Notes: generated by a model not told the origin, from the letters alone. DNA of 64,000 nucleotides from an uncultured Peptoclostridium sp. (GCA_965368085.1 CBDULP010000004.1:25401-89400); one strand, 5' to 3'. Numbered from the stretch's first letter, positions 10,686 to 47,340 are shown. Translations and numbers: made by a program.

Positions 10686-10783
10686 TTTTATCCCCCCCTC
10701 CTATTTTTGTCCTCTTTTCATTTATCAAGTATAGCAATGGGATATTATGAAGATTTGATAAAGTTGTTAAATAGTTGTAAAAT

Positions 10784-12193: not shown

Positions 12194-12200
12194 TGTTTAC

Positions 12201-12866
12201 CTAGTCCTCCAATCGATATCCAATCTTGAAGACAGTCTTTATATTGTCATTGAGATCTAATTTTTTTCTCAACTTTTGCACATGGGTGTCCACCGTTCTT
12301 GTTTCCCCCAAGTATTCATATCCCCAAACCCTTTCTAAAATTTGCTCTCTGGATAAAGCCATGTTTTTATTTTGGACAAGCAACACCAAAAGATCATATT
12401 CCTTCAGGGTTAATTCTATTGTTTTTCCTTCTTTTTTTATCGTTCTCTCATCCAATAAAATGGTCAAGTCCTTAAACTGTATAACAGAATCATTTTTCCC
12501 ATACCTTCGCAACACAACTTCTATCCTTGCAAGAAGTTCTATTGCCTCAAATGGCTTTACAATATAATCTTCCGCCCCTAGTTTCAGTCCCTCAACTTTG
12601 TTGAGCACTGCGTCTTTAGCGGTAAGAAATATTACCGGTATATTTAAATGACTAATTTTTTTCATCAAAGAAAATCCATCTATGTTCGGAATCATAACAT
12701 CCAGCAATATCAAATCAAATTTCTCGCTTTCTATCAGATTTAAAGCCTCTATCCCGTCAAAAACTTGCTTGCCTTCATACCCTGCTATCTCCAAATGCAC
12801 TTTGATTAAATTCGATATGCCTTTTTCATCTTCCACAATGCATATTTTTTTACCCAACACTCCCAC
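12201..12866 (-). CDS. OmpR-family response regulator
   Basis: Receiver domain with LILLDVMIPNIDG and a C-terminal winged helix (TRTVDTHVQKLRKKL ... GYRL). Confidence 0.9.
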   Translation of the reverse strand: MGVLGKKICIVEDEKGISNLIKVHLEIAGYEGKQVFDGIEALNLIESEKFDLILLDVMIPNIDGFSLMKKISHLNIPVIFLTAKDAVLNKVEGLKLGAEDYIVKPFEAIELLARIEVVLRRYGKNDSVIQFKDLTILLDERTIKKEGKTIELTLKEYDLLVLLVQNKNMALSREQILERVWGYEYLGETRTVDTHVQKLRKKLDLNDNIKTVFKIGYRLED

Positions 12867-12883
12867 CCCTGCTTTCTATGAAT

Positions 12884-14863: not shown

Positions 14864-15617
14864 TCAGATCACCTCCAAGAAGTGCCACCACCTCCATAAT
14901 ACGGTCAAAAAACTCTTTTCTTGTCTCATTCCCGCGGACCAATTCATTAAAAAGCCTGCCGTCTTTAATAAACAAAATACGCCTGCAATAACTTGCTGCA
15001 AACGTATCGTGTGTAACCATTAAAATACTTGCTCCGATTTCTTCATTGAGCTTTTTAAAGCTTTCCAAGAGCATTTTCGCAGATTTGGAATCCAGCGCAC
15101 CGGTGGGTTCATCTGCTAAAATCATGGATGGGCTCGTTATAATAGCCCGGGCCGAAGCAACACGCTGCTTTTGCCCCCCCGACATCTGATATGGATATTT
15201 TTGCAAAATATCGGTGATGCTGAGTAAATTCGCAACATTTGTTACTCTTGCGGCAATTTCATTTGCCGGGGTGTTTACAATGACAAGCGCAAGAGCAATA
15301 TTCTCATATGCCGTAAGGGTGTCAAGCAAATTGAAGTCCTGGAAAATAAACCCCAGCTTTTTTCTGCGAAACTCCAACAAAGCCTCCGCCTTCATTTCGG
15401 TAACATCTTGCCCGTTAATGAGAATATTCCCGGCTGTAACACTGTCAATAGTGGAAATGCAATTAAGCAGAGTGGTTTTGCCACTTCCCGACGCACCCAT
15501 TATCCCAATGTATTCACCCTCATCAACCGAAAAGCTGATGTCGCTTATAGCTTTTGTTATATTTCCTTTTCCTCCATAATACTTTTTCAGGTTTTTAACT
15601 TTTAATATTTCACTCAT
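14853..15617 (-). CDS. BceA-type ABC transporter ATP-binding protein
   Basis: Walker A GASGSGKTT, signature MSGGQKQRV, Walker B ILADEPTGALD. This is MacB/Bce-class ATPase context. Confidence 0.9.
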   Translation of the reverse strand: MSEILKVKNLKKYYGGKGNITKAISDISFSVDEGEYIGIMGASGSGKTTLLNCISTIDSVTAGNILINGQDVTEMKAEALLEFRRKKLGFIFQDFNLLDTLTAYENIALALVIVNTPANEIAARVTNVANLLSITDILQKYPYQMSGGQKQRVASARAIITSPSMILADEPTGALDSKSAKMLLESFKKLNEEIGASILMVTHDTFAASYCRRILFIKDGRLFNELVRGNETRKEFFDRIMEVVALLGGDLNAD

Positions 15618-25138: not shown

Positions 25139-25215
<77 letters not shown>

Positions 25216-25970: not shown

Positions 25971-27401
25971 TCAAATCAGTAGCCTTATAAATACTAATAC
26001 TTCATTAATCAATTCATCTACCGACATCGAGCCCTCATTAAGTTTTCTAAATTGTTCCTTTAATCTTGGATTTGCTTCTGGATAATACTCATCAAAGTTA
26101 TTCCATATTTTTTCCCAAAGTAACTTACTAACATATTTTGTTGCACCAACAGGCACTAATGAATTTCCTTTACTCTTTGCAATTTCAAATTCTTTAACCA
26201 CACCACCAGCATCAACAACCTTTTCATCTTGAAATTTATTGCCAAATATAAAAATACTTATGCCCGTCCTAGATAACATATCTGTTCTATAAGTATGCCA
26301 TAATTTCATAATGTCAGTATTCCCAGAATTATATTGTGGGAATGGTCTTAGAATCAATCTGTCGTCATTCATCTTTCCTTGATTTACAAATATTTCTTCC
26401 AATGCACCATTTATCACATAGCTCCCGACACCAAGACCAAATCCAGATACAATATTGTATCCATTTGAAATAAGTTTCTTGCTAAGTTTGTGAATGAACT
26501 CTTTCGAATCCTTATCCCCCCATTCCTCTTTATATGAATGTGCACTCCCTGAAATAAATACTGTCTTTTTCTTAATCAAATTGTCAATTTTCATAAGAGC
26601 TTCAGTGATTTCATCATAACTTTTAATTAAAATCGTCTGTATATTAAAGCGTTTAAGATCATTGATAAACAACTCTTGCTTTCGCTGACGATATTCAAAT
26701 TCAGCAAGTGCTTCATCTTTCTTTTGTTTAACTTCTTTTAATAAGCAATAATGTCGTCTCTGATTATTAGAGTAATTCACCCTCACGCGGCTTAGAATAT
26801 AATCTAAATTAGGATCAGTAAAACTAAACCCTAAGAAAAGAAAAGTCTTCGATACCAAATCACCACTTAGAGCAGTTATATATGGCTGCATTTTAACATG
26901 ATAAGACTCATAATCATCTTTTAGAATAATAGCTTTATTAGGGTGAGACACATCACCATGCATCTTATAAACTACAGCATTACGACCGCGCTTTGTCAAT
27001 GTCAAATGTTCAGTAGTATACTTCACATCAGCAACTTTTCCTTCGTCCTTTAGAGCTTTCTCAATCATATCATCATAGTTTGTTGTCCAATATGTTGGAA
27101 TATTAAGCCTCGCTAGAATTCTATGGTTTTCAGTCAATCTAGCTTCACTCGAAAACTCATCAAGAATCACCTGATTTATCCTATTACGATTTCCATGATT
27201 TTCATTAGAGTGATATTGTGCTAAAGATACTAAGTCACTTTCCTTATCAATATCCAAACCAATTTCCTCTGCCAACGGCCTAAGCAACTCACTCCAATTT
27301 ACATACCCTGCCGGAATTGACAAACCAGCTCCTGCAAATATTGCTGCATTCTCGTCTAGTATTTCTTTAACATACTCATTAATAAAAATATCCATTCTCA
27401 C
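25971..27401 (-). CDS. thsA: Thoeris ThsA, SIR2 NADase domain plus C-terminal SLOG domain
   Basis: 476 aa. It has long blocks that I recall from Bacillus cereus ThsA: ENAAIFAGAGLS, TYWTTNYD, VVYKMHGDV, ALSGDLVSKTFLFLGFSFTDPNLDYILSRVR, NIVSGFGLGVGSYVINGALEE, DDRLILRPFPQ. The start may be ATG 27395 rather than GTG 27401. Confidence 0.88.
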   Translation of the reverse strand: MRMDIFINEYVKEILDENAAIFAGAGLSIPAGYVNWSELLRPLAEEIGLDIDKESDLVSLAQYHSNENHGNRNRINQVILDEFSSEARLTENHRILARLNIPTYWTTNYDDMIEKALKDEGKVADVKYTTEHLTLTKRGRNAVVYKMHGDVSHPNKAIILKDDYESYHVKMQPYITALSGDLVSKTFLFLGFSFTDPNLDYILSRVRVNYSNNQRRHYCLLKEVKQKKDEALAEFEYRQRKQELFINDLKRFNIQTILIKSYDEITEALMKIDNLIKKKTVFISGSAHSYKEEWGDKDSKEFIHKLSKKLISNGYNIVSGFGLGVGSYVINGALEEIFVNQGKMNDDRLILRPFPQYNSGNTDIMKLWHTYRTDMLSRTGISIFIFGNKFQDEKVVDAGGVVKEFEIAKSKGNSLVPVGATKYVSKLLWEKIWNNFDEYYPEANPRLKEQFRKLNEGSMSVDELINEVLVFIRLLI

Positions 27402-27665
27402 TACCTTATCCCCTCCAAATTAAGAATTTTCAATAATTGATACGCTGTTTATATATGCCGCTCTTTCGATCCATTAATTGATCTGTATTCTACTACAGCA
27501 CCGCTGGAGAAAGCAAATTGAATGGGATATCCTCTGTACTCATCAAGACTTTTACTATAGATGTTTTTTGAATAATTCTTTCGATTTCAATTCGCACCAC
27601 TACTTATATATACAGCCCTACTTGTAAAAACAACGGGCTGGACGGTACTGATATATTATTTGTCC

Positions 27666-29108
27666 TTACAACTTTAAATAGTTATTTGTACTCATATGAT
27701 CATCAAATTCTTCAAACTTAACGAGTTTCAATTCTTCACCCCAAAAATCAGCAAACTCGCTAAATGCTAATATACATTTATTATGATCATTTTCTTTAAT
27801 TCCCTTTTCAATAATTGAAAATAATTTAGAAAATTTATCTTTATTTAGATTTAATCTGTTTTCTATATTTTGTTCAAATTCTTTTCTTTGGACTCTCATA
27901 ACTTCACATGCTGCTTCACAAAGAGCAATCACTTTCTGCGCTTCTTTTTCCTTTAGCTCCGCATATTTGAAAATTTCTATACAATTCTGATATACATTTG
28001 ATGCCGCCATATAACCTGCTATACTTCCAATAACCGCTCCACCTGGTCCAAAAACAAGCCCTGCAGTTGCTCCTGAATAAACACTAAGCATCGAACTAAA
28101 ACCCTTTTGTCCCATCTCCTCCATTGCCTTTTCTGCCATTATCTCTCCTTTAGCATATTTTAAAACTGTTACTCCCATATCAATGATACCTGCCGCGACT
28201 GTTGTAGACGTATTTGCTTTTGCTAAAGAATCAACACCTGTTTTTTTTGCAACTGCACGGATTCCTGATCCAAGGCCTCCGACCGCACCGCTTTTTACTC
28301 CTGCCTTTGTTGTATCTTGAGCGACATTCTCTATTGCTTCTTGCACTGACATATCCGTTCGGCAGACCTCTACAGAATTTTTTACTATTGATATAGCTCC
28401 TCCAATTACTGCACCTGCCGCTGCCGATTGCTTTACAGACACCCCAAGCTCTTCCTTAATCTGTTTTATTTCAAATGAATTAGAATATGCATCTGTATCT
28501 TTCGTTGCTGATAATGCCTCATCACTAGACGTTCCTCCAGAAGAAATATTCTTATATTTCAATTCAGGAGTCACATTTTCAGCTGTGTCTATATATTCAG
28601 TAGCTTTCAATGTCCCTGTTTCTGCTCTTTTTATCGCGAGTTCTCTAACTCTATCTGCCTTGTCAGAATTTACAAGTTTCTGCATCCCATTATATTTTTC
28701 TTCACTTATCATAAATGTAGCTCTTGATGCACTATTGCTTGATTTCGCCTGTACTTCCTGTAACACCTTTTCTCCATCTCTTATCAATATATCTGGAGCA
28801 GCATGTGGAGAACCCAACTCTGCCGTTGTAACAGCTCTCACACTAGACTCCTTTACTGCCGCATCTACATTGAATTTTGTCTTTTCAATAATTTCAAATA
28901 AATTTCCTTGTTTTATTCCATCCGAAACGTTAAGTAACCTTTCCGCCTCTTTTCGCAAAAGACCCATACCCTCAATTGCTTCATCACTTGCCTGAGAATA
29001 GTTTTTCGATAAATAATTACCTACTTGGCCTCCTGCAAAACCCTCTATTCCACATTTATTCTTTGAAGAATTATTTTTCTTCTTTTTCTTAAAAAGCCCC
29101 CCAAACAT
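27666..29108 (-). CDS. Hypothetical protein: Mrr-like PD-(D/E)xK-type N-terminal region plus glycine-zipper segments and C-terminal coiled coil (gene 4 of candidate system)
   Basis: Start moved to ATG 29108 (MFGGLFKKKKK), preceded by GGGAGAG and lying 13 nt after the upstream stop. Pattern GNLFEIIEKTKF ... HAAPDILIRDGEKVLQEVQAKS resembles the Mrr_cat core (E ... D ... QxK). Gly/Ala zippers are AAAGAVIGGAISIV, GAVGGLGSGI and GATAGLVFGPGGAVIGSIAGYMAA. The gene call is solid; the function is uncertain. Confidence 0.5.
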   Translation of the reverse strand: MFGGLFKKKKKNNSSKNKCGIEGFAGGQVGNYLSKNYSQASDEAIEGMGLLRKEAERLLNVSDGIKQGNLFEIIEKTKFNVDAAVKESSVRAVTTAELGSPHAAPDILIRDGEKVLQEVQAKSSNSASRATFMISEEKYNGMQKLVNSDKADRVRELAIKRAETGTLKATEYIDTAENVTPELKYKNISSGGTSSDEALSATKDTDAYSNSFEIKQIKEELGVSVKQSAAAGAVIGGAISIVKNSVEVCRTDMSVQEAIENVAQDTTKAGVKSGAVGGLGSGIRAVAKKTGVDSLAKANTSTTVAAGIIDMGVTVLKYAKGEIMAEKAMEEMGQKGFSSMLSVYSGATAGLVFGPGGAVIGSIAGYMAASNVYQNCIEIFKYAELKEKEAQKVIALCEAACEVMRVQRKEFEQNIENRLNLNKDKFSKLFSIIEKGIKENDHNKCILAFSEFADFWGEELKLVKFEEFDDHMSTNNYLKL

Positions 29109-29121
29109 ACTTATCTCTCCC

Positions 29122-30204
29122 TTAAATTTCTGGCAATGCCAATGCCTCTCCAATCTTAGGCAAAACACTTTGTGCTTCTTCATCTATATTTCCATCCTGC
29201 TTCAACAATGGCGTTTCAAGTAAAATTTTCATTACCTGAGCCACCTGATATGCCAAGTGAATAGATTTTTTTTCTTCAACTGTCAATTCAGTATAATCTA
29301 TAACCATTTTCTTTCCTAGTATCCGCCTAATAGCTCTTTTAAATTTAAATCCAAAACTCCTATCTGGACTATTTTCAAAAGTATTCAACATAATTTCCAA
29401 CCCATCCAATATGTTTGTCATCTTTTGGTCCATTTGTTCAGTCACGTCGTAAAATTGATCAGATAATCTGTCTATTGCTCTAAGAACACTACTTGCACAT
29501 TTCATTTCCTCTGCGGCTTTTTCCGCTTGCGCATACTTCTTCCTAGCTTCCGCCAAATTTTCCCTTGATTTTGCAGCCATGATCATACCGCCTATAGCTA
29601 ACACTGGTCCTGCCACAATTCCACCTAAAACTGCAGTTCCGCCTGCCATTCCCAACCCTCCTGCTGCAAGAGATCCGCCCCCAAACCAAGCCATTGTAGC
29701 GTTAGCCGCAGCCGCACCAGATAATGTACTTATCGCTGTACCAGTCGAAGCAGTAGCAAACATCATGGCTCCTCCATATGATGCTACTCCAGCTAAAGCT
29801 CCCGCCCCTAAAGAAGTGAATCCTCCAGCCACTACCTCACCTGCTTTCAATGACATTTGTTTCATTTCTCCTAGTTCTTCATCTGTAACATGCAGATATA
29901 AATCGCTATCTATAGCTGCTTCTCCTTCTAACTCTACATTTTTTACCCTCTCCACCAACTGTATAAATCTTCCAAACTGTCTGTCCCAAATTTCTAATTT
30001 TAGTTTTCCTAATTCTGATAACGATTCTGCTGCACTTTCTCTACATCGCTCCATTTCATACTTCGCATCTTCAAATAACTCTTGTGCTTCTTCAAAAAGC
30101 TCCCTTGCTTCTGAATTATTCGAAACAGCCTCCGCTCCCTTTGCAATTCCTGTAATTCCCCCAATAATTGCAGCACCTGCAAGCAAAAAAGGTAATGGCA
30201 TCAT
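29122..30204 (-). CDS. Hypothetical glycine-zipper membrane protein flanked by coiled coils (gene 3 of candidate system)
   Basis: N-terminal TM (PLPFLLAGAAIIGGITGIA), a coiled coil, then a ~90-aa Gly/Ala-rich hydrophobic block (GGFTSLGAGALAGVASYGG ... GGLGMAGGTAVLGGIVAGPVLAIGGMIMA), then helical Lys/Glu-rich segments. Its ATG overlaps the upstream stop (ATGA at 30201-30204). Confidence 0.5.
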   Translation of the reverse strand: MMPLPFLLAGAAIIGGITGIAKGAEAVSNNSEARELFEEAQELFEDAKYEMERCRESAAESLSELGKLKLEIWDRQFGRFIQLVERVKNVELEGEAAIDSDLYLHVTDEELGEMKQMSLKAGEVVAGGFTSLGAGALAGVASYGGAMMFATASTGTAISTLSGAAAANATMAWFGGGSLAAGGLGMAGGTAVLGGIVAGPVLAIGGMIMAAKSRENLAEARKKYAQAEKAAEEMKCASSVLRAIDRLSDQFYDVTEQMDQKMTNILDGLEIMLNTFENSPDRSFGFKFKRAIRRILGKKMVIDYTELTVEEKKSIHLAYQVAQVMKILLETPLLKQDGNIDEEAQSVLPKIGEALALPEI

Positions 30205-30497
30205 TCATTCCTCCTATTCTCTTCAATTAATTTTTTCCGTAATAAATCACATGATTTGTAATTTAGCATATGGTATTCTTGTAGTGTATATCTTTTTTTA
30301 AAAACCAAACTGTACATTTTATCGATATTACAAAATTCCGGCCTAGTCTCGTATATGGTACATAAATTCGTATTTAAGTCCAAGAATTTACAAATCCCAT
30401 CGCCTCTGTCCAAATCCTTATACAAATAATTTAGACTTATCGATTTACAACATGCCCCACATTTTTTACATTTGAATAAGCTCTTCTGCTCTTCCAT
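30201..30497 (-). CDS. YkgJ/UPF0153-family Cys-cluster (CxxCxxCC) protein (gene 2 of candidate system)
   Basis: FKCKKCGACCKS ... GICKFLD ... LCTIYETRPEFCN is the zinc/iron-chelating CxxCxxCC domain pattern. It overlaps the upstream gene by 32 nt. Confidence 0.65.
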   Translation of the reverse strand: MEEQKSLFKCKKCGACCKSISLNYLYKDLDRGDGICKFLDLNTNLCTIYETRPEFCNIDKMYSLVFKKRYTLQEYHMLNYKSCDLLRKKLIEENRRNE

Positions 30498-30873
30498 ATA
30501 AATTTTTTAACTCCTCTATCCATTTTTTTGTTTTCTGGAACTGTCCATCACCAATTTTAAACATTGTCATTATATTCTCCACTATTTTCTTTTCCTCATC
30601 CGCAAATACATCATCTGCAAATACAAGTGCAATTATTTCCATAAAAATCGCATTTTTTACAGCCCTATCTGCCTTACTAAATTCACCTAAAACATTTTCT
30701 AAATTGATCTTTTCTCTAATTATATAATCGCTTTCCGACAGCTCTAACTCCCTTCTATACTGTCTAATCATCTCCTTTTCTTCTTCAGCAAAATCATCAT
30801 CACAATTTGCTATATAATAAGCAACATCCAAAAAATTCTTTCTTTCTTTTTCATTAAGAATATGCAAAAACAT
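30466..30873 (-). CDS. TerB-like domain protein (gene 1 of candidate system)
   Basis: 135-aa all-helical protein with a duplicated acidic motif (IANCDDDFAEEEKEMI and VFADDVFADEEKKIV), as in TerB/DjlA-N-type domains. RBS AAAGGGGA lies upstream of the ATG. Confidence 0.6.
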   Translation of the reverse strand: MFLHILNEKERKNFLDVAYYIANCDDDFAEEEKEMIRQYRRELELSESDYIIREKINLENVLGEFSKADRAVKNAIFMEIIALVFADDVFADEEKKIVENIMTMFKIGDGQFQKTKKWIEELKNLYGRAEELIQM

Positions 30874-30968
30874 TTTTCATTCCCCTTTTCATTGTTTTTT
30901 ATCAACATCTCTAAGCTTTAAAAATAAATCCACAAATCAATTCTCATGAATCTCACTGAAATTGTATT

Positions 30969-33902
30969 CTAAACCCTTTCAATAAACTCGTTGAAATTAT
31001 CATACTCCTGAAATTTCACCTCATTACCCAATGCTTCAAAATGCTTGTGACCACATGCTATTTTGCTAATCTCACTCTGCCTTAGTTCTTCGGCAAGTAT
31101 ATTTCCCTTTGTCTCCATTACAAAGTACAGCTTCTCTTCCCCATTTTTTTCTACAAGTACAGACCAGTCTGGATTGTAGTTTCCAAGTGGTGTTCCTATC
31201 TTAAACCATCCCGGAAGTTTTGCATAAACCTTAACGCTATTATTCCTTTCGAATTTTTTCGCAAAATCTGCCTCAACGTCAGAGTCGTAAACAATATACT
31301 CGTATACAGACTTTTCGCTTTCAATCATGTTTTTAGACAGATATCCGAAAAGCTCCTCTTCCTCGAACAGCTCCTGCGCGTAAAATTCCTCGTCACCCAT
31401 CTTCTGATACTTTATTCCATCTACTATAAAGTATTTCATTTTCCTTTGTATTATCAGGCTTACTTCATCCATAAACTTTTGGGGATTGTTCTTGAAATCT
31501 TCAAGCCTCCCTGACTCTTTCAGAATTCTAACAAGTGTTTTCCTTGTAAGGTTTGTCTCATTTTGAAGGTACGTTATTATGTCCGGCAGGGCATATCCCG
31601 CATCATCAACCTCTACCGAATACCTGTCGCTTTCTTCTGCTATTGTCCCGCCAGCATTTATATCCACTTGAGCCTTTGAGTATATGAGCCTAGCCTTGTC
31701 GACTTTCAAGCTTTTCATTATCTCTTTTACACATTCCTCTACAAGCTTTTCCGTATCGAACTCCACTGAATATGTAGTCTTGTATTTTATCCTGTCCCAA
31801 AGTTCCTTAAACTCCGGGCTCAAAAACCTTCTCTTGTTGATTTTTACAGGCTTCTTGTCGGTTGCATTCTTTATGTTGAGGCTTGTCGCAATCTTCTTTA
31901 TCACATCGACAACCTTTGCCTGGACATGTTCATACTTCTGCGGAAGCTCGACTCCTCCAGCCTTTAAGTCAACTTTTAAATCATCCGTCACTCTGCCGCT
32001 GTCGTCTATGTAATCCCTTTCCTTCATGTAACCCCACAGTTCTTCCGACGCCTCTTGCTCCAGATACTTGCTCTCCCCGTCTTCTTCAAAAGTTATATTG
32101 GCAAATGTGTGCTTTTCGATTATTCCGAATTTTATGCCCTCTTCTTTTTCTATCTCTTTTTGAAGCGACTTTGCGAAATCCTCATACGATTCGTTCGCCA
32201 TGACGGTGAGAGTGTTTATGTGGAAGCCATGCTTTCTCTCTCCGTTTTGATCAACGGCAATTCTTAGGCCTCTTCCTATCTTCTGGCGCTTTGTGAATGA
32301 GTCTTTGTTCTCTATCAAAGTACATATCTGGAACACATTTGGATTGTCCCATCCTTCTTTAAGTGCTGAATGCGAAAATATAAACTTAAGCTTGGAGTCG
32401 AAGCTCAAAAGTTTTTCCTTGTCCTTCATTATCAGAGAATATGTATCCTCGTCTGCAATCGTGTTTCCTTTGGTATCCTTCAGTTTTCCCTTTTTATCCT
32501 GGGAAAAATATCCGTCGTGTACCGCCTCAACCTCTGTGTCTACGTCCACGTCTTTAAAGAAGTTGTTGTACTTTGGCTTCTGTATTATATTCTTGTACTC
32601 CTCCTCAAACCACTGGGCGTACTTGCCTTTCTGCCTGTTGCCCTCACTGTCATAATGCCTGTAATTTGCAACTTTGTCTATGAAAAACAAGCTCAGTACC
32701 TTTATTCCCTCCTGCTTTAACCTCATTTCCTTTTCGAGATGCTCCTCTATTGTCTTCCTTATCTGAGCTCTCTTTATCACGTCATCGTCGACCTCTCCTC
32801 TGACTTCTCCAATACTCAGCCTATCCTTGGTTGAAAAGTCGACATACGCGGCTCCCTCCTCTGCATATATCTCGCTTATCCTGTAGCCGCTGTACTGCTC
32901 TCTTTCTCCGGAGACAGCAAAAATGTCATCACCCTTCTTCACAGTCACTATCTTTCTCTTTATCTTGCCTCGCTCTTTCTTGTCTATCTCAATCTTAGCC
33001 TTTATGGGAGAGGTCTTGTTGCTGACACTCACAAGCTTCATGTACGCATCGTTATTGTGGTCCTTCGACATCAAGCTTGCAACCTCTATTTGCTTTACAA
33101 GCTGCCTTTGATATGCGTCTACAGCATCCAGCCTGTACATGAGATTGTGCTTTTCCTTGTGCGTTGCCGAATACCTCAGAGTGCAAAGGGGGTTGAGTGA
33201 CATTACTGCATCGCTTGCCTTTTTCGTACTTACAGTCGACTGCGGCTCGTCTATTATCACTATTGGATTTGTGTCCCTTATAAAGTCCAATGGTCTTAGC
33301 CCATTTGTCCTCTCGTGGTCATTGTTTATTATGTTAGTGTCCTTATTGAACGACTGTATGGTCATCACCATTATCCGTATGTGGTCGCTTGTTGCAAACT
33401 CCCTTATGTTTTCAATGCTTTTCGACTTGTACTCATTGGCCTTGAATATCACATTGTCATAGAGAAGCCTGAAATGCTCGCTCATTATATCTATTGATTT
33501 TACAACGCCTTCCTTTATGGCCACTGAAGGGACTACTATTATAAACTTTGTAAAACCATACTTTTTGTTTAGCTCGAATATAGACCTGAGGTACACATAA
33601 GTCTTTCCTGTTCCTGTCTCCATTTCAACTGTGAAGTGATAGTTGTCCTTTTTTATTTTTTCCGACTGCGCAAGCCCGTTTTTTAGCTGAATCTTCCTGA
33701 CATTTTTGAGTATGTCTTCTTCGTCAAAGTTCGAGTCCAGCTTGTTGCCTATTCCTAGATTGGTTTCGCTCATCCCCACCTGCCCAAGTAGGTTTGCGAC
33801 TGTGAAATTCGACTGGACTATAGACTGTCCCTCAAATATATTGACAATAGAATCTATGGCTTCTTTCTGGTAGTCTAATTCCGGATTGAATTTAAGCTTC
33901 AA
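30969..33902 (-). CDS. res: Type III restriction enzyme Res subunit (SF2 helicase plus C-terminal PD-ExK nuclease)
   Basis: MKLKFNPELDYQKEAIDSIV N-terminus, Walker A METGTGKT, motif II IIDEPQS, helicase C motifs, and C-terminal NPDWSVLV ... YFVMETKG (PD...ExK). Confidence 0.85.
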   Translation of the reverse strand: MKLKFNPELDYQKEAIDSIVNIFEGQSIVQSNFTVANLLGQVGMSETNLGIGNKLDSNFDEEDILKNVRKIQLKNGLAQSEKIKKDNYHFTVEMETGTGKTYVYLRSIFELNKKYGFTKFIIVVPSVAIKEGVVKSIDIMSEHFRLLYDNVIFKANEYKSKSIENIREFATSDHIRIMVMTIQSFNKDTNIINNDHERTNGLRPLDFIRDTNPIVIIDEPQSTVSTKKASDAVMSLNPLCTLRYSATHKEKHNLMYRLDAVDAYQRQLVKQIEVASLMSKDHNNDAYMKLVSVSNKTSPIKAKIEIDKKERGKIKRKIVTVKKGDDIFAVSGEREQYSGYRISEIYAEEGAAYVDFSTKDRLSIGEVRGEVDDDVIKRAQIRKTIEEHLEKEMRLKQEGIKVLSLFFIDKVANYRHYDSEGNRQKGKYAQWFEEEYKNIIQKPKYNNFFKDVDVDTEVEAVHDGYFSQDKKGKLKDTKGNTIADEDTYSLIMKDKEKLLSFDSKLKFIFSHSALKEGWDNPNVFQICTLIENKDSFTKRQKIGRGLRIAVDQNGERKHGFHINTLTVMANESYEDFAKSLQKEIEKEEGIKFGIIEKHTFANITFEEDGESKYLEQEASEELWGYMKERDYIDDSGRVTDDLKVDLKAGGVELPQKYEHVQAKVVDVIKKIATSLNIKNATDKKPVKINKRRFLSPEFKELWDRIKYKTTYSVEFDTEKLVEECVKEIMKSLKVDKARLIYSKAQVDINAGGTIAEESDRYSVEVDDAGYALPDIITYLQNETNLTRKTLVRILKESGRLEDFKNNPQKFMDEVSLIIQRKMKYFIVDGIKYQKMGDEEFYAQELFEEEELFGYLSKNMIESEKSVYEYIVYDSDVEADFAKKFERNNSVKVYAKLPGWFKIGTPLGNYNPDWSVLVEKNGEEKLYFVMETKGNILAEELRQSEISKIACGHKHFEALGNEVKFQEYDNFNEFIERV

Positions 33903-33913
33903 ATCATCACCCC

Positions 33914-35875
33914 CTATACGCTCATTATCTCTTCAATACCATTTCTTCTTAAAATTTGGATAGCGTTAGTCTTAACTGAATCACTTTTAAACCCATTGTC
34001 CTTGAAAACTACCCTTATTACCTCAGGGCAGAGCTCTTCCTTAAGGCTTGCTATGCCTTCAACAACATCAAGCGTTATGTCATCATCAAGACATACAATA
34101 AGCGCTCCAAATCCTATACTAAAAATCTTCTTTCCATTTATTTCAAGCTCTTCAACAGGATAAGTCAAATCAATGCCGTATTTGAGCATTATCTCGTAAA
34201 GCACATCCTCTTGAGTCCTTCCATCAACAAAATTGTTTATCATGTTGTCAAATGTCAGCTCCAGGTTGTCATAGTCAGGATTCCACTTTTTTAGATTGGA
34301 AGAGTCCAGCTTAAACACTTTAAATCCTGTATCCAGATTCTCAATACCTTCCTTGTTCTTGTTTTTTTCAACAATCTTGTCTCCAGCTTTCCTGATTCTT
34401 TCCTTTCCTATTTCACATATATTCTCATATCCGACCTTGTAGGCTTCACTTTTTTCATCACAGGGTTCTTGTAGCTGAACCATTATAAATTTTCGTTTGC
34501 TTCTATCCTCTATATTGAGCTGCATTACTGCATGGGCTGTAGCAGCAGAACCCGAGAAAAAGTCGAGAACTACATCCTCCTCTTTAGTTAAAAAACTTAT
34601 TAAATCACATAAAATTTCCTCATCCTTAGGATAATCAAAAACTGTAACTCCACCAAATAATTCTCTTAGACGCTTCATTGCAGCACGGTTATCTTTATAT
34701 ATAACACTATATGGAACTTGGTATTCCTTATCCTTAAGATACATTTTTCGGCAAGGAACTATATTTTCATCGATTCCAAAATGGATATTTCCTTTCTTTA
34801 TCTCCTCATTCATCCTCTCGATACTTGAAAAAACCCATCCTCTGGCTGGAATTTTACATTTCTTTCCCGTTATCGGATGATAAATATCATACTTAGGTCC
34901 GCCACCTCCAGGCCAAGAAATATCAGCAGGAAAATATATTCCTCTATTATCTATACACTTATAATGTTTATGTTTTTTTGATGGATGACCATCTGACAAA
35001 GACCTATACCATCCAACAAGATCTTTTGATGCCTGCGAATAATCTTCCTTGTAAAGTGCCACTAACTCATCTACTTTTTTATATATTTCATCCAATCCTT
35101 CCTTTTTTTGTCTCCACACTATTCCATCTTCAAGCAAACGACCTTTATTTTTTGCATAGATTACTATATATTCATGAGAATTCGAAATATACTTAGAGTC
35201 ATTTTTTCTCCCGGCGCTCCATATCATAGCGCTAATAAAATTCTGTTCCCCAAATAACTCATCACACATCTTTCTTAGATTATTAATTTCTATATCATCA
35301 ATACTAATAAATATAGCCCCGTCATCACTCAGAAGATTCTTTGCCAATCTTAGTCTCGGATACATCATATTCAACCAGTCGGTATGGTATCTTCCGCTAC
35401 CTTCTGAGTTAGTGCTTATCTTTCTTCCTTCCTCATCAACCTGTCCTGTTATTTCGAGGTAGTTTCTGAGGTTGTCCCTGTAATCGTCTGGATATACGAA
35501 ATCCTTCCCCGTATTGTATGGGGGGTCTATGTATATCATCTTTATCCTATTGTGGTATGTCTTTTGGAGGAGCTTCAGCACTTCAAGGTTGTCCCCTTCT
35601 ATATACATATTCTCAGTCGTGTCCCAATTCTTACTTTCCTCTTTACTCGGCCTTAAAGTCCCAGTGGAAGGCGTCTGTGCAAGCTTTATCGACCTTGACT
35701 TCCCATTCCACTCGAATCTATATCTTTCTTGTCTGTCCTCTATGTACTCTCCTAAAATCTCCTGAAGCCTTTCAAAATCTATTCTGTCCTCGCAAAACGC
35801 CTCTGGAAAGAGGTCTTTTATTCTGTTTACATTTTCCGCCACTATGTCCTTGCTTCTAAAGTCAAGTTTTTGCAC
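33914..35875 (-). CDS. mod: Type III-like DNA methyltransferase Mod (beta-class N6-adenine/N4-cytosine)
   Basis: Motif IV IYIDPPYNTG comes before motif I VLDFFSGSAATAHAV (beta-class order). The N-terminus is typical of Mod subunits (EWNGK ... GTLRP ... NLYIEGDNLEVLKLL-like). Confidence 0.85.
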   Translation of the reverse strand: MQKLDFRSKDIVAENVNRIKDLFPEAFCEDRIDFERLQEILGEYIEDRQERYRFEWNGKSRSIKLAQTPSTGTLRPSKEESKNWDTTENMYIEGDNLEVLKLLQKTYHNRIKMIYIDPPYNTGKDFVYPDDYRDNLRNYLEITGQVDEEGRKISTNSEGSGRYHTDWLNMMYPRLRLAKNLLSDDGAIFISIDDIEINNLRKMCDELFGEQNFISAMIWSAGRKNDSKYISNSHEYIVIYAKNKGRLLEDGIVWRQKKEGLDEIYKKVDELVALYKEDYSQASKDLVGWYRSLSDGHPSKKHKHYKCIDNRGIYFPADISWPGGGGPKYDIYHPITGKKCKIPARGWVFSSIERMNEEIKKGNIHFGIDENIVPCRKMYLKDKEYQVPYSVIYKDNRAAMKRLRELFGGVTVFDYPKDEEILCDLISFLTKEEDVVLDFFSGSAATAHAVMQLNIEDRSKRKFIMVQLQEPCDEKSEAYKVGYENICEIGKERIRKAGDKIVEKNKNKEGIENLDTGFKVFKLDSSNLKKWNPDYDNLELTFDNMINNFVDGRTQEDVLYEIMLKYGIDLTYPVEELEINGKKIFSIGFGALIVCLDDDITLDVVEGIASLKEELCPEVIRVVFKDNGFKSDSVKTNAIQILRRNGIEEIMSV

Positions 35876-35877
35876 TT

Positions 35878-36651
35878 CTATTCCCCCTGTTCACCAAACT
35901 GGCCTATCAAGGCCTTTTTTATCTCTTCCTGCTTTTTTATTTCTATGTTAATTCTGACCTTGTTGCTAAAGCTCGCTTCTTTTTTTATACGGCCCTTCAG
36001 CTCCGCAACCCTCTTTTCAACTTCCCCTATTCTGCCCATGAGCTCTTTCACTTTCTGCGGATCTTTGCCCTCCACCTGTGAGTAGCCCCCTGCAATCTCC
36101 GATGCGTTAAGCAGATTTATCCTGTCAACCATATCCGAATAGAACCTGTAGAAGTTGCTAAACGAAAGCTTTCTTATATCTATGCTCTCCAGAAACCGCA
36201 TTTCCCTATCGCTGGGGCTTTCAAAATTTATCCAGTCGGTGTATATAAACTCCTCCACTGCATTTTTGCTTCTGTCAGCCATGTTAACTCTCTTGTGAGC
36301 GGCGCTTACGAGCATACTGTTTTCATATGTGATCACAAGCAGCACTGGATACGGTATTGTCCTTTGTATTATCTGGGTTATGCGTTTTGCCTTGTTGACG
36401 TTTTCAAGCACGACCTCTATAACAGCCACTTCTTCGTATTCGCGCTCTCCATCGATATACGGCTGAATGTTTATGGTATTCTCTTTGAACGAGAACCTCC
36501 ATATGATCTTCTTGACATCGCTTGCGAAAATCTCCCTGTCTTTTTTACTCATGCCAGAGTTCTCGTAGAAAAGCTTCTTGAATATTACGTTGTCCACCCT
36601 ACATGATTTTGGTGCATTCAAACTGTCGAAAAAGCTATACATAATATCCAC
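35878..36651 (-). CDS. DUF4391-like protein
   Basis: 257 aa. I recognise the layout (N-terminal P-K-S-x-V-x-x-x-I-x-K-K-L-F ... EVAVIEVVL ... IPYPVLLV, C-terminal coiled coil) as the DUF4391 type commonly found between a helicase and a methyltransferase. This is recollection only, with no search run. Confidence 0.5.
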   Translation of the reverse strand: MDIMYSFFDSLNAPKSCRVDNVIFKKLFYENSGMSKKDREIFASDVKKIIWRFSFKENTINIQPYIDGEREYEEVAVIEVVLENVNKAKRITQIIQRTIPYPVLLVITYENSMLVSAAHKRVNMADRSKNAVEEFIYTDWINFESPSDREMRFLESIDIRKLSFSNFYRFYSDMVDRINLLNASEIAGGYSQVEGKDPQKVKELMGRIGEVEKRVAELKGRIKKEASFSNKVRINIEIKKQEEIKKALIGQFGEQGE

Positions 36652-39600
36652 CTACTTTATTATCAGAAATGATATAAGCTCGAAGTCTTCAATTCCAGAA
36701 AAAAGATTTTTCTGCATCGTCGTTCCTCCCTTACCGAAAAGACTAGCAACCCCCTTTTCCTCAGTCTTTCCTATTATGCTCTCTATGGCAACCTCCAGAA
36801 GCTCCGAGTACCTTTCCATGTCTATACCTTCCCTTGTGTCCCTGTTGAAAGTCTCCACAAGTTCTAAGTCCACAGAGCTCTTGCCGAGGCAGAGCTTCTT
36901 GTAGTAGTCCATTGTTTTTTTCATGTGTATGTGACTGTGCCTTACCGTTCCATCCTCATTAACATATACCATGTAGTACGGATAGAAGGGGTTGTGCTCC
37001 TGCGGCTTTGCCGATGCATTTATCTGTCTGAGCGTGAAAATCACCCCTGATGCCATGTCCTCGCTTGCAAACTTTCCTTTCGAAGAGGCTATTGCGTACA
37101 TGCCCATAGGAGCCCTATCCAGCTTGTCCCTTTCGCACTTCATGTTCTCCATGAGGTCCATCTTGAAGTCATTCATCGTTAGGTCTGTGATTGAAATTCC
37201 TCCAGAGATGTCCTCAAGATCCACCACTTCATCCTGAAGCTGCTTCAGCTGCTTTTTCCTGTACTCCAAATCATTCATCTTCTTTTTTTCATCAAACTCG
37301 ATTACATTCTCCTCCCCTGTTGCGGATATGTCGAGGAGCACCATTCTCCCTGCTACCCTCGCTTCGAGGTTTATATACTCGTCAAGCTGCATGTTGGGCC
37401 AAAAGTTGACAAGCTGCACAGATTCATTCTTAGATCCCAGGCGGTCTATACGCCCAAACCTTTGTATTATCCTTACTGGGTTCCAGTGTATATCGTAGTT
37501 TACGAGGAAATCGCAGTCCTGCAGATTCTGTCCCTCTGAAATGCAGTCTGTCGCAATCAGAAGTTCTATCTCATCTCTGGCGTCCGACTGGATTTTATCC
37601 CTTTCTTTTGAAATCGGAGAAAAATTTGTAAGTATTGAGTTGAGGTCTTTTCTCGCCACGCTTTTAAGCGTAGTCCTGTTGCCCCCAGAACCCGTGACAA
37701 GAGCAGAGTGAAGTCTGTACTCGTCCATTATCCAGCTTGAAAGGTTCTCATATAGATATTGAGCGGTATCCGAAAATGCTGTAAACACTATCGCTTTCTT
37801 GTTCCCGCAGTTTACAGGGTTTTCGAGCTTTTCAATTATGAGCTCCTTGAGGCTTTTGAGCTTTGCGTCTCTTTTGTTTGTCACCTTGGCTGACTCTATA
37901 AGAAGCTGCTCAAGCTTATCCTTGTCATCCTCAAGATCCTGCCTCCACCTTATGAGATCCATGTCCTGAATCAGCACCTTTACCTTGCTCCCTATCAGGA
38001 CATCCTCGTATTCCGCATCGTATTCATCTACGTCCATTATGCTAATGCCCTCGTCGTATTCAAGCTGATTCGCTTCTATCTTCTTGAGCATTCCGTCTAT
38101 CTGGCTTAAAAGCCTTGACACCGTTAACCCGAATGAGCTTATCGAGCTTTCCATCCTCTTGAGTATGTTGATTCTCATAAGATTAATAAGGGCCTGCTCC
38201 CTGTCCGTCTGCCTAAATATTGAGTTTCCATTTTTAACGTGTACGTCGTACTTCTCGCTGTAGAGCGCCCTTTTTTCAGGAAGGACGTACTTGAGCGGAG
38301 AATATGCGCTCATGTTGAGATTCTTTATGGCCTTGTTCACATGTTCGAGAGGCGGAAAATTTCCGGTTGTGTCTATGTCCGTGTATTTATTGATCGGCTT
38401 TCTCCTTACCGGAAACTTTCCTATCTCTGCTACGTTGTAATACTTTTCTATGTGCTTTCTCGACCTTGCTATTGTTACTGTATCAAGAAGCTTGAAATAG
38501 TCAGTGTTCATCATCTCGACAAAGACATCTGTCGTGCGCTCTCCTTCTGAAAGCTCAAGCCACCTGTTGAACACAAGTTGGGCCTTTCTCAGCGTCTGCT
38601 CCAGACTTGCGATCCCTTCGCCTTCAAACGCCCTGTCGTTGCCTTCCGTTATGAATGCTATCTGGTTTTTGATGTCATTCATCTTGTTGTTCACTGGAGT
38701 AGCCGAAAGCATTAGTATCTTCGTCTTGACGCCTGCCTTGACCACATCTTCAAGAAGCCTTGAATACCTCGTCTTCTTGTCTTTTCGTAGGTTGTTGTTC
38801 CTGAAGTTATGAGACTCGTCTATGACTATAAGGTCATAATTCGACCAATTGACGCTCTCTAGGTTTATTTCACCCGAGTAGCCATTGTACCTGCTAAGAT
38901 CCGTGTGATTCAGCACGTCATAGTTAAACCTGTCATCCACAAGTATGTTTCGCCTGTCGTTTTGGGTGTATACCGTCCAGTTCTCCCTGAGCTTTTTAGG
39001 CGAAAGGACAAGGACACGATCATTTCTGAGCTCGTAATATTTGATTACAGCAAGCGCCGAATATGTTTTTCCAAGCCCTACCGAATCGGCGATTATGCAC
39101 CCGTTGTGCTTTTCAAGCTTGTCTATCGCACCAAGGACTCCGTCCTTTTGAAACTTATAGAGCTTGTTCCATATGAGGGTGTCCTTGAATCCTGTCTTTG
39201 TCTTGACTATATTATCTTCTGTCAGTTCATCAAGATAATCCCTGAAAATGTTATAAAGTGTCACGAAGTATATGAATTCAGGTGTATTTTCCTTATATAT
39301 CACCTGCATTTGCTCTAAAACCTTTCTTTTGACGTCCTCGAGCTTAGATTCATCCTCCCAAAGTTCGTTGAACTGCTGCATGAACTGAATTGTGGCCTCA
39401 TTGCCTATTATGCATGCATTCATATCATTTCGGCTCGAAGAAGCAAACCCAAGCCCATCAGCTGTGAAATCGACAGTGCCGTTAATAGAGACATTTACGT
39501 CCTTATTTTCAACAAATATAAGGCGCTGTTGAGCCGGATTGGCACTCTTAAATGACTTAACCTGTACCTTCTCCCTAAGCCAGTCTGCGCACTCTCTAGC

Positions 39601-39906
39601 AATATGGGCCTGGTTGAGCTCGTTTCTCATCTTTATTTCAAATTCGTTTCCCGATATATTCCTCTCCGGACTTTTGTCTATGTAGTATTCCCTACTGAGC
39701 TCCTTCTTCTCCCCTATGAAACTGGGCTCTGTAAATATGAATCTCATGTTTTTAATCTTTCCAAGCTCCTTGCGGAGCTCTTTGTAAGCATATATCGTGA
39801 AATATGCCGATACCACCGAAATCTTAGATCCCGCCCGTATATGATTTTTAAGTTCTTCTCCAACACGCCCATTTTTTTTATTATCCAGCATTTTCAAATT
39901 ATTCAT
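36652..39906 (-). CDS. SNF2-family helicase with ~200-aa N-terminal accessory domain
   Basis: SNF2 motifs: I ADSVGLGKT, II VIDESHNFRN, III MLSATPVNN, and C-terminal helicase motifs (ISEGQNLQD, WNPVRIIQRFGRIDRLG). The N-terminal domain resembles PLD/NgoFVII-like modules seen on such helicases, but I see no HxK motif. Confidence 0.8.
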   Translation of the reverse strand: MNNLKMLDNKKNGRVGEELKNHIRAGSKISVVSAYFTIYAYKELRKELGKIKNMRFIFTEPSFIGEKKELSREYYIDKSPERNISGNEFEIKMRNELNQAHIARECADWLREKVQVKSFKSANPAQQRLIFVENKDVNVSINGTVDFTADGLGFASSSRNDMNACIIGNEATIQFMQQFNELWEDESKLEDVKRKVLEQMQVIYKENTPEFIYFVTLYNIFRDYLDELTEDNIVKTKTGFKDTLIWNKLYKFQKDGVLGAIDKLEKHNGCIIADSVGLGKTYSALAVIKYYELRNDRVLVLSPKKLRENWTVYTQNDRRNILVDDRFNYDVLNHTDLSRYNGYSGEINLESVNWSNYDLIVIDESHNFRNNNLRKDKKTRYSRLLEDVVKAGVKTKILMLSATPVNNKMNDIKNQIAFITEGNDRAFEGEGIASLEQTLRKAQLVFNRWLELSEGERTTDVFVEMMNTDYFKLLDTVTIARSRKHIEKYYNVAEIGKFPVRRKPINKYTDIDTTGNFPPLEHVNKAIKNLNMSAYSPLKYVLPEKRALYSEKYDVHVKNGNSIFRQTDREQALINLMRINILKRMESSISSFGLTVSRLLSQIDGMLKKIEANQLEYDEGISIMDVDEYDAEYEDVLIGSKVKVLIQDMDLIRWRQDLEDDKDKLEQLLIESAKVTNKRDAKLKSLKELIIEKLENPVNCGNKKAIVFTAFSDTAQYLYENLSSWIMDEYRLHSALVTGSGGNRTTLKSVARKDLNSILTNFSPISKERDKIQSDARDEIELLIATDCISEGQNLQDCDFLVNYDIHWNPVRIIQRFGRIDRLGSKNESVQLVNFWPNMQLDEYINLEARVAGRMVLLDISATGEENVIEFDEKKKMNDLEYRKKQLKQLQDEVVDLEDISGGISITDLTMNDFKMDLMENMKCERDKLDRAPMGMYAIASSKGKFASEDMASGVIFTLRQINASAKPQEHNPFYPYYMVYVNEDGTVRHSHIHMKKTMDYYKKLCLGKSSVDLELVETFNRDTREGIDMERYSELLEVAIESIIGKTEEKGVASLFGKGGTTMQKNLFSGIEDFELISFLIIK

Positions 39907-41037: not shown

Positions 41038-41224
41038 TATTTTTATCCTTTATCCTTGTTGGAATGTCCTGCATATCAGGCATTAGTTTTTCATAGTGCT
41101 GTGCCAAGCGGTGTAAAAATATCGGGCTTATGAGGTCATATCTGCCCTTGCCGGCGGCAGGCTCCCTCACGGCTCCGCCTTCTATATACACTATGCGCTC
41201 TCCGGAATCATTCAGCTTGTTCAT
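41038..41224 (-). pseudogene. Truncated 5' fragment of a dATP/dGTP diphosphohydrolase-N-like phage gene
   Basis: The first ~47 codons of ORF 40892-41224 read ...AAGKGRYDLISPIFLHRLAQHYEK, resembling the GK-R-x-DL-x-P ... A ... Y-x-x-G-x-x-KY start of that family. The frame then runs through the BRO upstream region and into the BRO gene out of frame. Confidence 0.3.
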
Positions 41225-41624
41225 CGGCCTTCACCGCCTGGCCACGCTGCCTGTTGTAAACCTTCGAACGGTTAAGCCACATTATGGCTTCCTCAATATG
41301 TGTAATCGCATTGGCCTTATGTCTGCACCTCGTATCCTTTTGCGCTTGCAGGTTCTCAAGTTTGCAAAGAACCATATTTAACGCATCTATGTCGGTTACT
41401 CCGCTGTCATTTGCATTTCTATTTTGCTTAAATGAGTCCTGGAAAACAACTTTACCTAACAGTTTTGTCCTCCTGGCATTCGGGCCACGGCCTTTCTTGA
41501 ACACATAAAATTCAGAAGGCACATTATCGTCTGTCATTGATCTTTTGTCGAAGTATATCTCCGTTTTGTTGTTATCCGCAAGGTCCTTGTTGTATTTTAC
41601 TAATGTATTTTCAAATCCTATCAT
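41208..41624 (-). CDS. Hypothetical phage-type protein
   Basis: 138-aa ORF in the operon. The C-terminal AITHIEEAIMWLNRSKVYNRQRG resembles a helix motif frequent in small phage proteins. No function assignable. Confidence 0.45.
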   Translation of the reverse strand: MIGFENTLVKYNKDLADNNKTEIYFDKRSMTDDNVPSEFYVFKKGRGPNARRTKLLGKVVFQDSFKQNRNANDSGVTDIDALNMVLCKLENLQAQKDTRCRHKANAITHIEEAIMWLNRSKVYNRQRGQAVKADEQAE

Positions 41625-47295: not shown

Positions 47296-47340
47296 CTGGG
47301 GGTCAAGGGGTCGCAGGTTCAAGTCCTGTCACTCCGACCA
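47296..47340 (+). repeat. attR core: displaced original 3' 45 nt of tRNA-Pro
   Basis: Identical to 25171-25215. No tRNA 5' half precedes it, so it is not a second tRNA gene. Confidence 0.9.

Follow-up and report, generated by a model that had tools for sequence, protein, structure and literature searches.

A four-gene operon on a mobile defense island of an uncultured Peptoclostridium is a predicted Gram-positive member of the Dionysus anti-phage family

The 64,000-nucleotide (nt) window analyzed here comes from an uncultured Peptoclostridium sp. (GCA_965368085.1 CBDULP010000004.1:25401-89400), and positions are counted from its first letter. An initial annotation, made from the sequence alone, had placed four coupled minus-strand genes at 27666-30873 and described them as an unassigned operon, possibly a new defense or abortive-infection module. 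All four open reading frames (ORFs) are present there, and we refer to them as g1 to g4 from the 5′ end of the operon. The operon can no longer be called unassigned: three of its four genes are homologous to the components DinA, DinB, and DinC of the Dionysus system, and its core pair already figures in PADLOC as the candidate PDC-M09. On the homology evidence set out below, it is a four-gene member of the Dionysus anti-phage family, a Gram-positive variant of a known system.

30466-30873, minus strand: g1, TerB-domain protein of 135 amino acids (aa), the DinB-like component
30201-30497 (8612-8908 in locus L001), minus strand: g2, CxxCxxCC protein of 98 aa
29122-30204, minus strand: g3, DinC-like protein of 360 aa (359 aa from the second ATG)
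29115-29121, minus strand: GGGAGAG Shine-Dalgarno sequence of g4, in the 13-nt g3/g4 spacer, read directly
27666-29108, minus strand: g4, DinA-like protein of 480 aa

The gene junctions are as first described. The coordinates give overlaps of 32 nt between g1 and g2 and of 4 nt between g2 and g3, and direct reading of the 13-nt gap between g3 and g4 confirmed GGGAGAG ahead of the ATG at 29108 (gggagagataagt). The second ATG of g3 is the start used by its homologs and by the gene call of the source assembly. For g4, an alternative in-frame ATG lies upstream at 29183 and would give 505 aa; 36 aligned homologs and the Shine-Dalgarno sequence GGGAGAG speak for the start at 29108. The automatic gene caller missed g2 in the gene table of the source assembly, and short overlapping genes of its Cys family are probably under-annotated generally. 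The four genes are real and conserved, and chance ORFs are excluded, because g3 has more than 4000 homologs, g4 has 76 in a word-indexed search, and g2 has 42 operon-linked homologs with the eight Cys residues. Translational coupling would hold the stoichiometry of the four proteins.

A consensus scan found neither a promoter nor a terminator in the 95 nt between the upstream gene res and g1 (30874-30968), in agreement with the initial annotation, and over the whole of 27300-31200 it called no terminator-like site. On the minus strand, the closest sequence resembling a promoter (31123→31096, 9/12) lies within res; the scan is weak evidence, since its 16 promoter-like sites compare with 12.6 ± 3.5 in shuffled sequences. 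The operon may thus be transcribed together with res, by read-through from it. At the other end, one feature was seen by eye:

27613-27640, minus strand: weak 6-bp hairpin CAGCCC...GGGCTG with a 16-nt loop, 26 nt past the g4 stop codon

The terminator scan did not call this hairpin, which has a loop longer than 8 nt and no T-run. The operon may end at this hairpin, ahead of the 264-nt spacer to thsA.

Dionysus was validated in Pseudomonas aeruginosa in a September 2025 preprint, Table S1 of which supplied the Din protein sequences used here (bioRxiv 10.1101/2025.09.30.679545). DinA (557 aa) is described there as a "MAEBL" part plus a transmembrane (TM) segment, DinB (211 aa) as TerB-like, and DinC as an alpha-helical protein with four TM segments, likened to ClyA/Hbl/Nhe (bioRxiv 10.1101/2025.09.30.679545). 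All three genes are needed for a protection of >10^6-fold against phiKZ-like jumbo phages, and the system is functional when cloned alone (bioRxiv 10.1101/2025.09.30.679545). Cells expressing it survive infection at a multiplicity of infection (MOI) of 10 without taking up propidium iodide, and they show neither early phage infection (EPI) vesicles nor phage nuclei; foci of DinA and DinC appear where the phage infects, and an AlphaFold3 model docks DinC on the DinA C terminus (bioRxiv 10.1101/2025.09.30.679545). Dionysus was reported from Gamma- and Betaproteobacteria only (bioRxiv 10.1101/2025.09.30.679545). A 2026 review names it among the anti-jumbo-phage systems and adds no mechanism (PMC13282480).

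In a BLASTP comparison, residues 2-340 of the 360 in g3 match P. aeruginosa DinC (E = 4e-32, 32% identity), and the profile of the g3 family (A1) matches DinC at 6e-80. g3 also matches two PADLOC PDC-M09A models (1.2e-26 and 1.3e-23) and the PADLOC model LeoBC (3e-4), while no Pfam family was found for it and a profile search against PDB sequences returned nothing significant. Judged by its sequence, g3 is a DinC homolog with a predicted N-terminal TM segment, a long helical hairpin, and a Gly/Ala-rich hydrophobic block. The anatomy first proposed for it (an N-terminal TM segment, coiled coils, and a Gly/Ala block of ~90 aa) is borne out by uncharged runs at residues 1-21 and 124-211, the latter an 88-aa Gly/Ala block, and by the AlphaFold2 (AF2) model, in which helices of ~80 residues span 5-84 and 199-278 and further helices lie at the C terminus (predicted local distance difference test [pLDDT], 68.5, with low confidence over the hydrophobic block, 130-206). 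As modeled, this design of helical hairpin plus hydrophobic head is compatible with a ClyA-type architecture. Membership of g3 in the ClyA superfamily was not supported by the searches: residues 190-260 match the NCBIfam XaxA subfamily at 1.9e-6, but the 27.4 bits are far under the cutoff of 125, and a Foldseek search against the PDB found axonemal coiled-coil proteins only (best E, 0.06; template modeling [TM] score, ~0.2), with ClyA, XaxA, and Hbl absent. The two proteins that the initial annotation grouped by their glycine zippers are not detectably paralogous, a relationship rejected because hhalign gives a probability of only 13% between the g3 and g4 families.

The profile of the g4 family (A2) matches P. 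aeruginosa DinA at E = 4e-17, both in the N-terminal domain (5e-6) and in the membrane region (7.5e-15), and the alignment of the DinA N terminus to this profile keeps the residues E, N, D, and QxK. g4 alone matches DinA by BLASTP at 5e-9 over the membrane region. These comparisons cover the first 399 of the 557 aa of DinA, its C terminus lying outside them; no His is found at position 326 of the DinA sequence so compared, the position of the H326A substitution in the preprint. From these matches we assign g4 as a DinA homolog. Searches of Pfam, NCBIfam, and PADLOC placed it in no family significantly. The protein has a basic N terminus and no signal peptide, and a cytoplasmic alpha/beta domain at residues ~40-220 (AF2 pLDDT, >90) is followed by a Gly-rich amphipathic helical region, a hairpin, and a C-terminal coiled coil. 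Two of its parts map as follows:

28443-29003, minus strand: g4 N-terminal domain, residues 36-222, candidate PD-(D/E)xK-like nuclease fold
27978-28103, minus strand: uncharged Gly-rich hairpin of g4, residues 336-377, a 42-aa uncharged run with the coiled coil after it

Instead of the three Gly-zipper segments described at first, g4 has one clean uncharged hairpin (336-377) and amphipathic Gly-rich helices. Hairpin and C-terminal coiled coil together are the sole DinA-like part kept in all variants of the family. A separate observation concerns the hairpin with the helix that follows it (~336-424 in g4, ~161-274 in g3), which bears a weak, sub-threshold likeness to the dynamin paddle; the best PDB match of g4 is the paddle region of a Nostoc bacterial dynamin-like protein (PDB 2j68, E = 0.067), a lead only. 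Weak matches to the PADLOC LeoA/LeoBC (Eleos) models were also seen, proteins from loci L045 and L037 being among those concerned. These likenesses may reflect a shared membrane-insertion module.

The FEIIE...DILI...QAK motif that the initial annotation read as the core of an Mrr-type nuclease is present in the g4 N-terminal domain and invariant across the family. Across phyla, all 55 sequences that bear the domain have G68, E72, D106, Q120, and K122; N80 and Y139 are nearly invariant, and P. aeruginosa DinA retains the signature as E95, D132, Q148, and K150. The AF2 model of g4 orders this region as a helix (63-85), three strands (90-94, 107-111, and 114-121), a helix (127-134), and a strand (143-145), with E72 in the first helix, D106 just before strand 107-111, Q120 in strand 114-121, and K122 just after it. 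An E in helix 1, a D in strand 2, and a (D/E)xK in strand 3 form the classical arrangement of the PD-(D/E)xK superfamily. A Q in place of the D/E is a feature of Mrr-type enzymes, which offers a lead and no test. The Mrr reading stands at the level of the motif, and the order of elements fits a PD-(D/E)xK nuclease; support from Pfam, the PDB, or Foldseek was not obtained. Neither Mrr_cat nor any other nuclease family of Pfam matched g4 or 47 N-terminal domains at E ≤ 1, the scan of these domains giving scattered chance matches only. Profile searches of g4 and of its N-terminal domain against PDB sequences found nothing significant. In Foldseek searches against the PDB, the full-length g4 model returned helical matches only (E > 0.5); for the g3 and g4 models together, the matches were generic long-helix or designed proteins (E > 0.05, TM score ≤ 0.23) and are uninformative. 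A deep profile search with the N-terminal domain against 1.84 billion representatives yielded 702 clusters at 50% identity. In the best 150 of these 702 the domain lies at or near the N terminus in all, most at DinA-like lengths, and none of the 150 forms a bridge to a known nuclease family. The "MAEBL" label that the preprint gives to this part of DinA was reproduced by no search here. A PD-(D/E)xK nuclease fold is a reasonable but unproven reading of the modeled domain, because the searches gave no link to known nucleases.

The TerB assignment of g1 was upheld by Pfam (TerB PF05099, 2e-10, 41.4 bits against a gathering cutoff of 24.4), the match falling in two stretches. A hidden Markov model (HMM) built from operon-linked TerB proteins matches P. 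aeruginosa DinB end to end (E = 6e-12), and in this alignment an insert of ~75 aa separates the two TerB half-motifs of DinB. We classify g1 as a DinB-type TerB protein, a putative accessory or sensor component. The YkgJ/UPF0153 Cys cluster noted in g2 likewise found support in Pfam (CxxCxxCC PF03692, 2.6e-9, 38.1 bits against a cutoff of 23), with g2 below the YcgN equivalog cutoffs of NCBIfam. Its residues C10, C13, C16, C17, C36, C46, C56, and C83 are kept in 98 to 100% of 42 operon-linked homologs. Neither the TerB protein nor the Cys protein matched any PADLOC model.

The core pair connects the operon to a system already cataloged. PDC-M09 is an unvalidated candidate of PADLOC-DB v2 whose components A and B are the only models matched, and among the papers searched none mentions it. 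P. aeruginosa DinC matches PDC-M09A at about 1e-25, as g3 does, and DinA-like proteins match PDC-M09B (4e-11 for the protein of L045, 1e-8 for that of L037). PDC-M09 is therefore the DinC/DinA core pair.

The operon shares with Dionysus all three protein families, a single co-directional operon, the conserved C-terminal module of DinA, and surroundings of defense genes. It differs in gene order (TerB-Cys-DinC-DinA, against dinA-dinB-dinC), in the g2-type Cys protein that the published three-gene system lacks, in its TerB protein of 135 aa without the central insert (against 211 aa for DinB), in its DinA-like protein of 480 aa (against 557 aa in P. aeruginosa), and in its host, an anaerobe of the Bacillota known from a metagenome-assembled genome (MAG) rather than a member of the Gamma- or Betaproteobacteria. 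The N-terminal part of DinA, "MAEBL" in the preprint, is read here as a domain with an invariant E...D...QxK signature.

The family extends well beyond both hosts. More than 4167 of 8000 scored candidates belong to the g3 family at E ≤ 1e-3, and a scan with one genome per species found it in at least 525 genomes. Its carriers include Bacillota, Cyanobacteria, Alpha-, Gamma-, and Epsilonproteobacteria, Bacteroidales, Spirochaetes, Thermodesulfobacteriota, Hydrogenedentota, Acidobacteria, Actinomycetota, and one archaeal MAG (Hadarchaeum). We compared the six-frame ORFs of 84 loci from more than 10 phyla with HMMs for the DinC-like (C), DinA-like (A), TerB (T), and Cys (Y) proteins. The DinC-like and DinA-like genes are adjacent on the same strand in ~78 of the 84 loci; TerB occurs in ~47, and the Cys gene in ~44, on either side of the core pair. 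Within a cassette all genes share a strand, in permuted orders:

CA: 16 loci, the core pair alone
TYCA: 10 loci, the order of this operon
YCA: 10 loci
ATC: 9 loci, the published Dionysus order
TCA: 7 loci
TCAY: 6 loci
ATCY: 6 loci, the published order plus the Cys gene
CAY: 5 loci
YTCA: 3 loci
CATY: 1 locus, in Bacillus sp. HMF5848

The four genes therefore do co-occur elsewhere, a point on which the initial annotation had left its proposal to depend, and in 10 loci from Bacillota, Bacteroidales, and Campylobacterota they do so in the same order; this TYCA arrangement is carried by Thermotaleaceae, Peptococcaceae, Syntrophomonas, Bacteroidales, Campylobacteraceae, Helicobacteraceae, and Sulfurovum. 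C and A are the obligatory core, and T and Y are common accessories, each found with or without the other. Loci of the ATC type have longer T and A proteins (medians of 264 and 531 aa), matching P. aeruginosa DinB and DinA. At the other extreme, a mini-DinA of 130 to 160 aa adjoins the DinC-like gene in seven loci (L056, L070, L077, L079, L080, L082, and L083), carried by Acinetobacter, Moraxella, Epsilonproteobacteria, and, in one case, Acidobacteria. All that remains in it is the last hairpin with the coiled coil (profile positions ~370-470), and the nuclease-like domain is missing; this fits the remaining segment as the predicted DinC-docking part. The patchy spread across phyla fits horizontal transfer. 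As a separate observation, a DinC-like/DinA-like pair lies at 4407-6849 on a contig assigned to an archaeon (L019, a Candidatus Hadarchaeum MAG); this could be a genuine inter-domain transfer or a binning artifact.

Taken together, we put the probability that the operon is a functional Dionysus-type anti-phage module at about 0.7. In line with the initial annotation, it is very probably an anti-phage module, in which membrane-active proteins are joined by a TerB accessory and a nuclease-like motif. By extrapolation from P. aeruginosa, the DinA-like and DinC-like proteins would associate at the membrane, joined by the C-terminal hairpin and coiled coil of DinA, and their complex would stay inactive until infection. 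Once triggered, the complex would move to the phage entry site or to a phage-made membrane compartment and disrupt it, leaving the phage genome exposed while the host membrane stays intact and the cell survives; TerB would serve as a membrane- or ion-responsive sensor or regulator. To this scheme we add two proposals of our own. The E...D...QxK domain of DinA may be a membrane-tethered nuclease-like module that cuts or binds the exposed DNA, and the 8-Cys protein may be a metal- or redox-dependent fourth subunit.

Several points weigh against assigning this function. The P. aeruginosa system is the only family member that has been tested experimentally (bioRxiv 10.1101/2025.09.30.679545). Pairwise BLASTP found no similarity between g1 and DinB, and g4 had no PADLOC match to PDC-M09B at E ≤ 1. 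The reading of DinC as an alpha-pore-forming toxin was not reproduced for g3 (Foldseek TM score of ~0.2; XaxA at 27 against 125 bits), and the nuclease reading drew no support from Pfam, the PDB, or Foldseek. That the g2-type protein is a metal- or redox-dependent accessory tuning activation is purely our inference. Several homologous loci sit among housekeeping or redox genes, with defense neighbors absent. On plasmids the family is seldom found (6 of 72,556 records), and a tblastn search of g3 against a collection of phage records came back empty, which lends no support to carriage by phages or prophages in that collection. Finally, jumbo chimalliviruses with EPI vesicles are not known to infect such hosts, and for this reason trigger and target may differ here from those in P. 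aeruginosa.

The mechanism that the initial annotation preferred, in which the Gly/Ala-rich proteins, as an abortive or toxin module, would on infection open pores in the cytoplasmic membrane of their own host, depolarize it, and kill the cell, could draw on the 88-aa hydrophobic block of g3, on the hairpin of g4, and on the weak XaxA-family match of g3 (1.9e-6). The preprint's comparison of DinC with ClyA/Hbl/Nhe points the same way, as does the frequency of membrane effectors in defense (bioRxiv 10.1101/2025.09.30.679545). However, the XaxA match is far below the curated cutoff, ClyA, XaxA, and Hbl are absent among the Foldseek matches, and cells carrying the sole tested homolog are not permeabilized and survive an MOI of 10 (bioRxiv 10.1101/2025.09.30.679545). 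The abortive-infection part of the first proposal conflicts with the latter point, Dionysus-expressing cells surviving without propidium iodide uptake, and we regard this alternative as quite improbable. Slightly less so, though still unlikely, is a general module against membrane or envelope stress, in the spirit of TerB/tellurite resistance or PspA, whose helical membrane proteins would stabilize or remodel the cytoplasmic membrane and which would protect against phage as a side effect in some hosts. Historically, TerB counts as a domain of stress responses (bioRxiv 10.1101/2025.09.30.679545). The family is also very large and mostly chromosomal, many of its loci have no defense neighbors (e.g., those of Bacillus sp. 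HMF5848, Pleurocapsa, and Brevibacillus choshinensis), and the weak, sub-threshold likeness of hairpin plus helix to the dynamin paddle and LeoA/LeoBC points the same way. Yet the phenotype of the P. aeruginosa homolog is strong and specifically anti-phage (bioRxiv 10.1101/2025.09.30.679545), the locus studied here is cargo of a mobile defense island, and ~5 of 9 individually examined contexts are defense-rich. Permuted orders and a patchy distribution are typical of defense cassettes, and an invariant nuclease-like signature fits poorly with a purely structural role at the membrane.

A further alternative would deny the cassette its autonomy and make it a membrane-tethered accessory of the adjacent restriction/helicase system, co-transcribed with res. 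The 95-nt gap without promoter or terminator is compatible with this, and a type III Mod/Res pair lies at most 5 kb upstream in locus L013 as well; in that locus, however, three unrelated genes separate the restriction-modification genes from the cassette. Four- or two-gene cassettes occur in 84 loci with other neighbors, usually without restriction-modification genes, and Dionysus works when cloned alone (bioRxiv 10.1101/2025.09.30.679545), which together make this explanation very improbable. We also considered and rejected the operon as a part of Thoeris or of the restriction-modification block, the cassette having unrelated neighbors elsewhere.

Beyond the published system, the Dionysus-type reading adds a four-gene architecture with a conserved Cys-cluster protein, a broad non-proteobacterial distribution with permuted gene orders, mini-DinA variants, and an invariant nuclease-like signature in DinA. 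Nucleus-forming jumbo phages are not known in most of the groups found to carry the DinC/DinA core, which suggests that the system senses a broader signal than the vesicles of chimalliviruses. Roughly every second locus pairs the core with an 8-Cys CxxCxxCC gene, the E...D...QxK domain of DinA provides a concrete, testable mechanistic hypothesis, and the link between PDC-M09 and validated Dionysus would help to annotate thousands of gene pairs now labeled "hypothetical". A bolder and, to us, doubtful proposal is that Dionysus as a whole is a membrane-tethered nuclease rather than a simple pore former, with a divergent active PD-(D/E)xK domain and an 8-Cys gating subunit, and forms a pan-prokaryotic four-component system. 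If so, the DinC/DinA module would bring the DinA nuclease to the vesicle or the site where phage DNA enters, an 8-Cys metal or Fe-S subunit would belong to about half of the family members in more than 10 phyla, and the published three-gene proteobacterial Dionysus would be one branch only.

Likenesses to other systems are partial. In Juk (JukA/JukB), a sensor recruits a pore-forming effector to the early-infection vesicle of the phage and the cell is spared (PMC13282480); the resemblance is by description only, and Juk has no TerB, DinA-like domain, or Cys protein. Shango (SngA) and Bunzi (BnzA) share a TerB component proposed to monitor the membrane (bioRxiv 10.1101/2025.09.30.679545), but their partners are helicases, ATPases, and other proteins, with no DinC/DinA membrane pair, and g1 matched neither the SngA nor the BnzA model of PADLOC at E ≤ 1. 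The ClyA, Hbl, Nhe, and XaxAB toxins, the last a two-component system, likewise set long helical hairpins beside a hydrophobic head; unlike them, g3 and g4 have no secretion signal, and the published homolog is intracellular and noncytolytic.

The position of the operon between two defense systems on a mobile island, as first proposed, was corroborated by the Thoeris genes, restriction block, att repeats, and integrase found around it. The island has the following features:

25139-25215: tRNA-Pro (GGG), the island edge
30969-39906, minus strand: restriction block with SNF2/ResIII-type helicase, DUF4391, N6_N4 methyltransferase, and ResIII+RE_endonuc genes
41208-41624, minus strand: Acb2/Tad1 hairpin-domain protein of 138 aa (PF24729, E = 7e-8, above cutoff)
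44986-46167: tyrosine integrase gene
47296-47340: exact repeat of the 3′ 45 nt of tRNA-Pro, just past the tyrosine integrase

The tRNA-Pro repeats bound an integrative element of ~22.1 kb (approximately 25216-47340), and the two 45-nt copies are attL and attR. The element also encodes an HTH_17 excisionase-like protein, a RepA_N initiator, an ERCC4 nuclease, and a Bro-N/ANT antirepressor. Its cargo is the SNF2/ResIII helicase-DUF4391-methyltransferase-Res block, the four-gene cassette, and Thoeris ThsA/ThsB. The ResIII/RE_endonuc gene lies upstream of the cassette, and ThsA (SIR2+STALD; PADLOC, 1e-205) followed by ThsB lies downstream. The helicase of the restriction block has 1084 aa and a weak nSTAND3 match; the block is something other than a plain type III Mod/Res pair. 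The window matches a 116-kb metagenome contig (ENA ERZ25043464 NODE_33) of an anaerobic Bacillota-like organism, and genes for URO-D/RACo corrinoid methyltransferases lie beside the island. The Acb2/Tad1 protein shares the island with Thoeris. Members of its family are phage-encoded sponges against the signaling molecules of CBASS and Thoeris, and this one could be a self-regulator or a weapon between elements.

The contexts of homologous loci elsewhere are mixed:

L013: defense-rich, type III Mod/Res
L025: defense-rich, Druantia DruE and HEC-06/SspE-like
L087: defense-rich, GmrSD, SNF2, and MmeI-type genes; a solo, distant A-like gene
L088: defense-rich, DUF488/DuOB/helicases
L003: housekeeping, no defense genes
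L004: housekeeping, no defense genes
L085: housekeeping, no defense genes
L086: ambiguous, NACHT protein

When 147 proteins flanking the genes of 10 loci were scanned with PADLOC as one set, two type IV restriction, three WYL, and two type II methyltransferase matches were obtained; these counts are pooled over loci, L013 and L025 alone having been mapped individually. In L088, the stretch at 5323-15043 beside the DinC/DinA pair encodes DUF488, DUF488-N3a, and DuOB proteins and two large helicases, one of 1223 aa (DEAD/DUF559/Zn-ribbon) and one of 1094 aa (ResIII). This cluster looks like another defense cluster.

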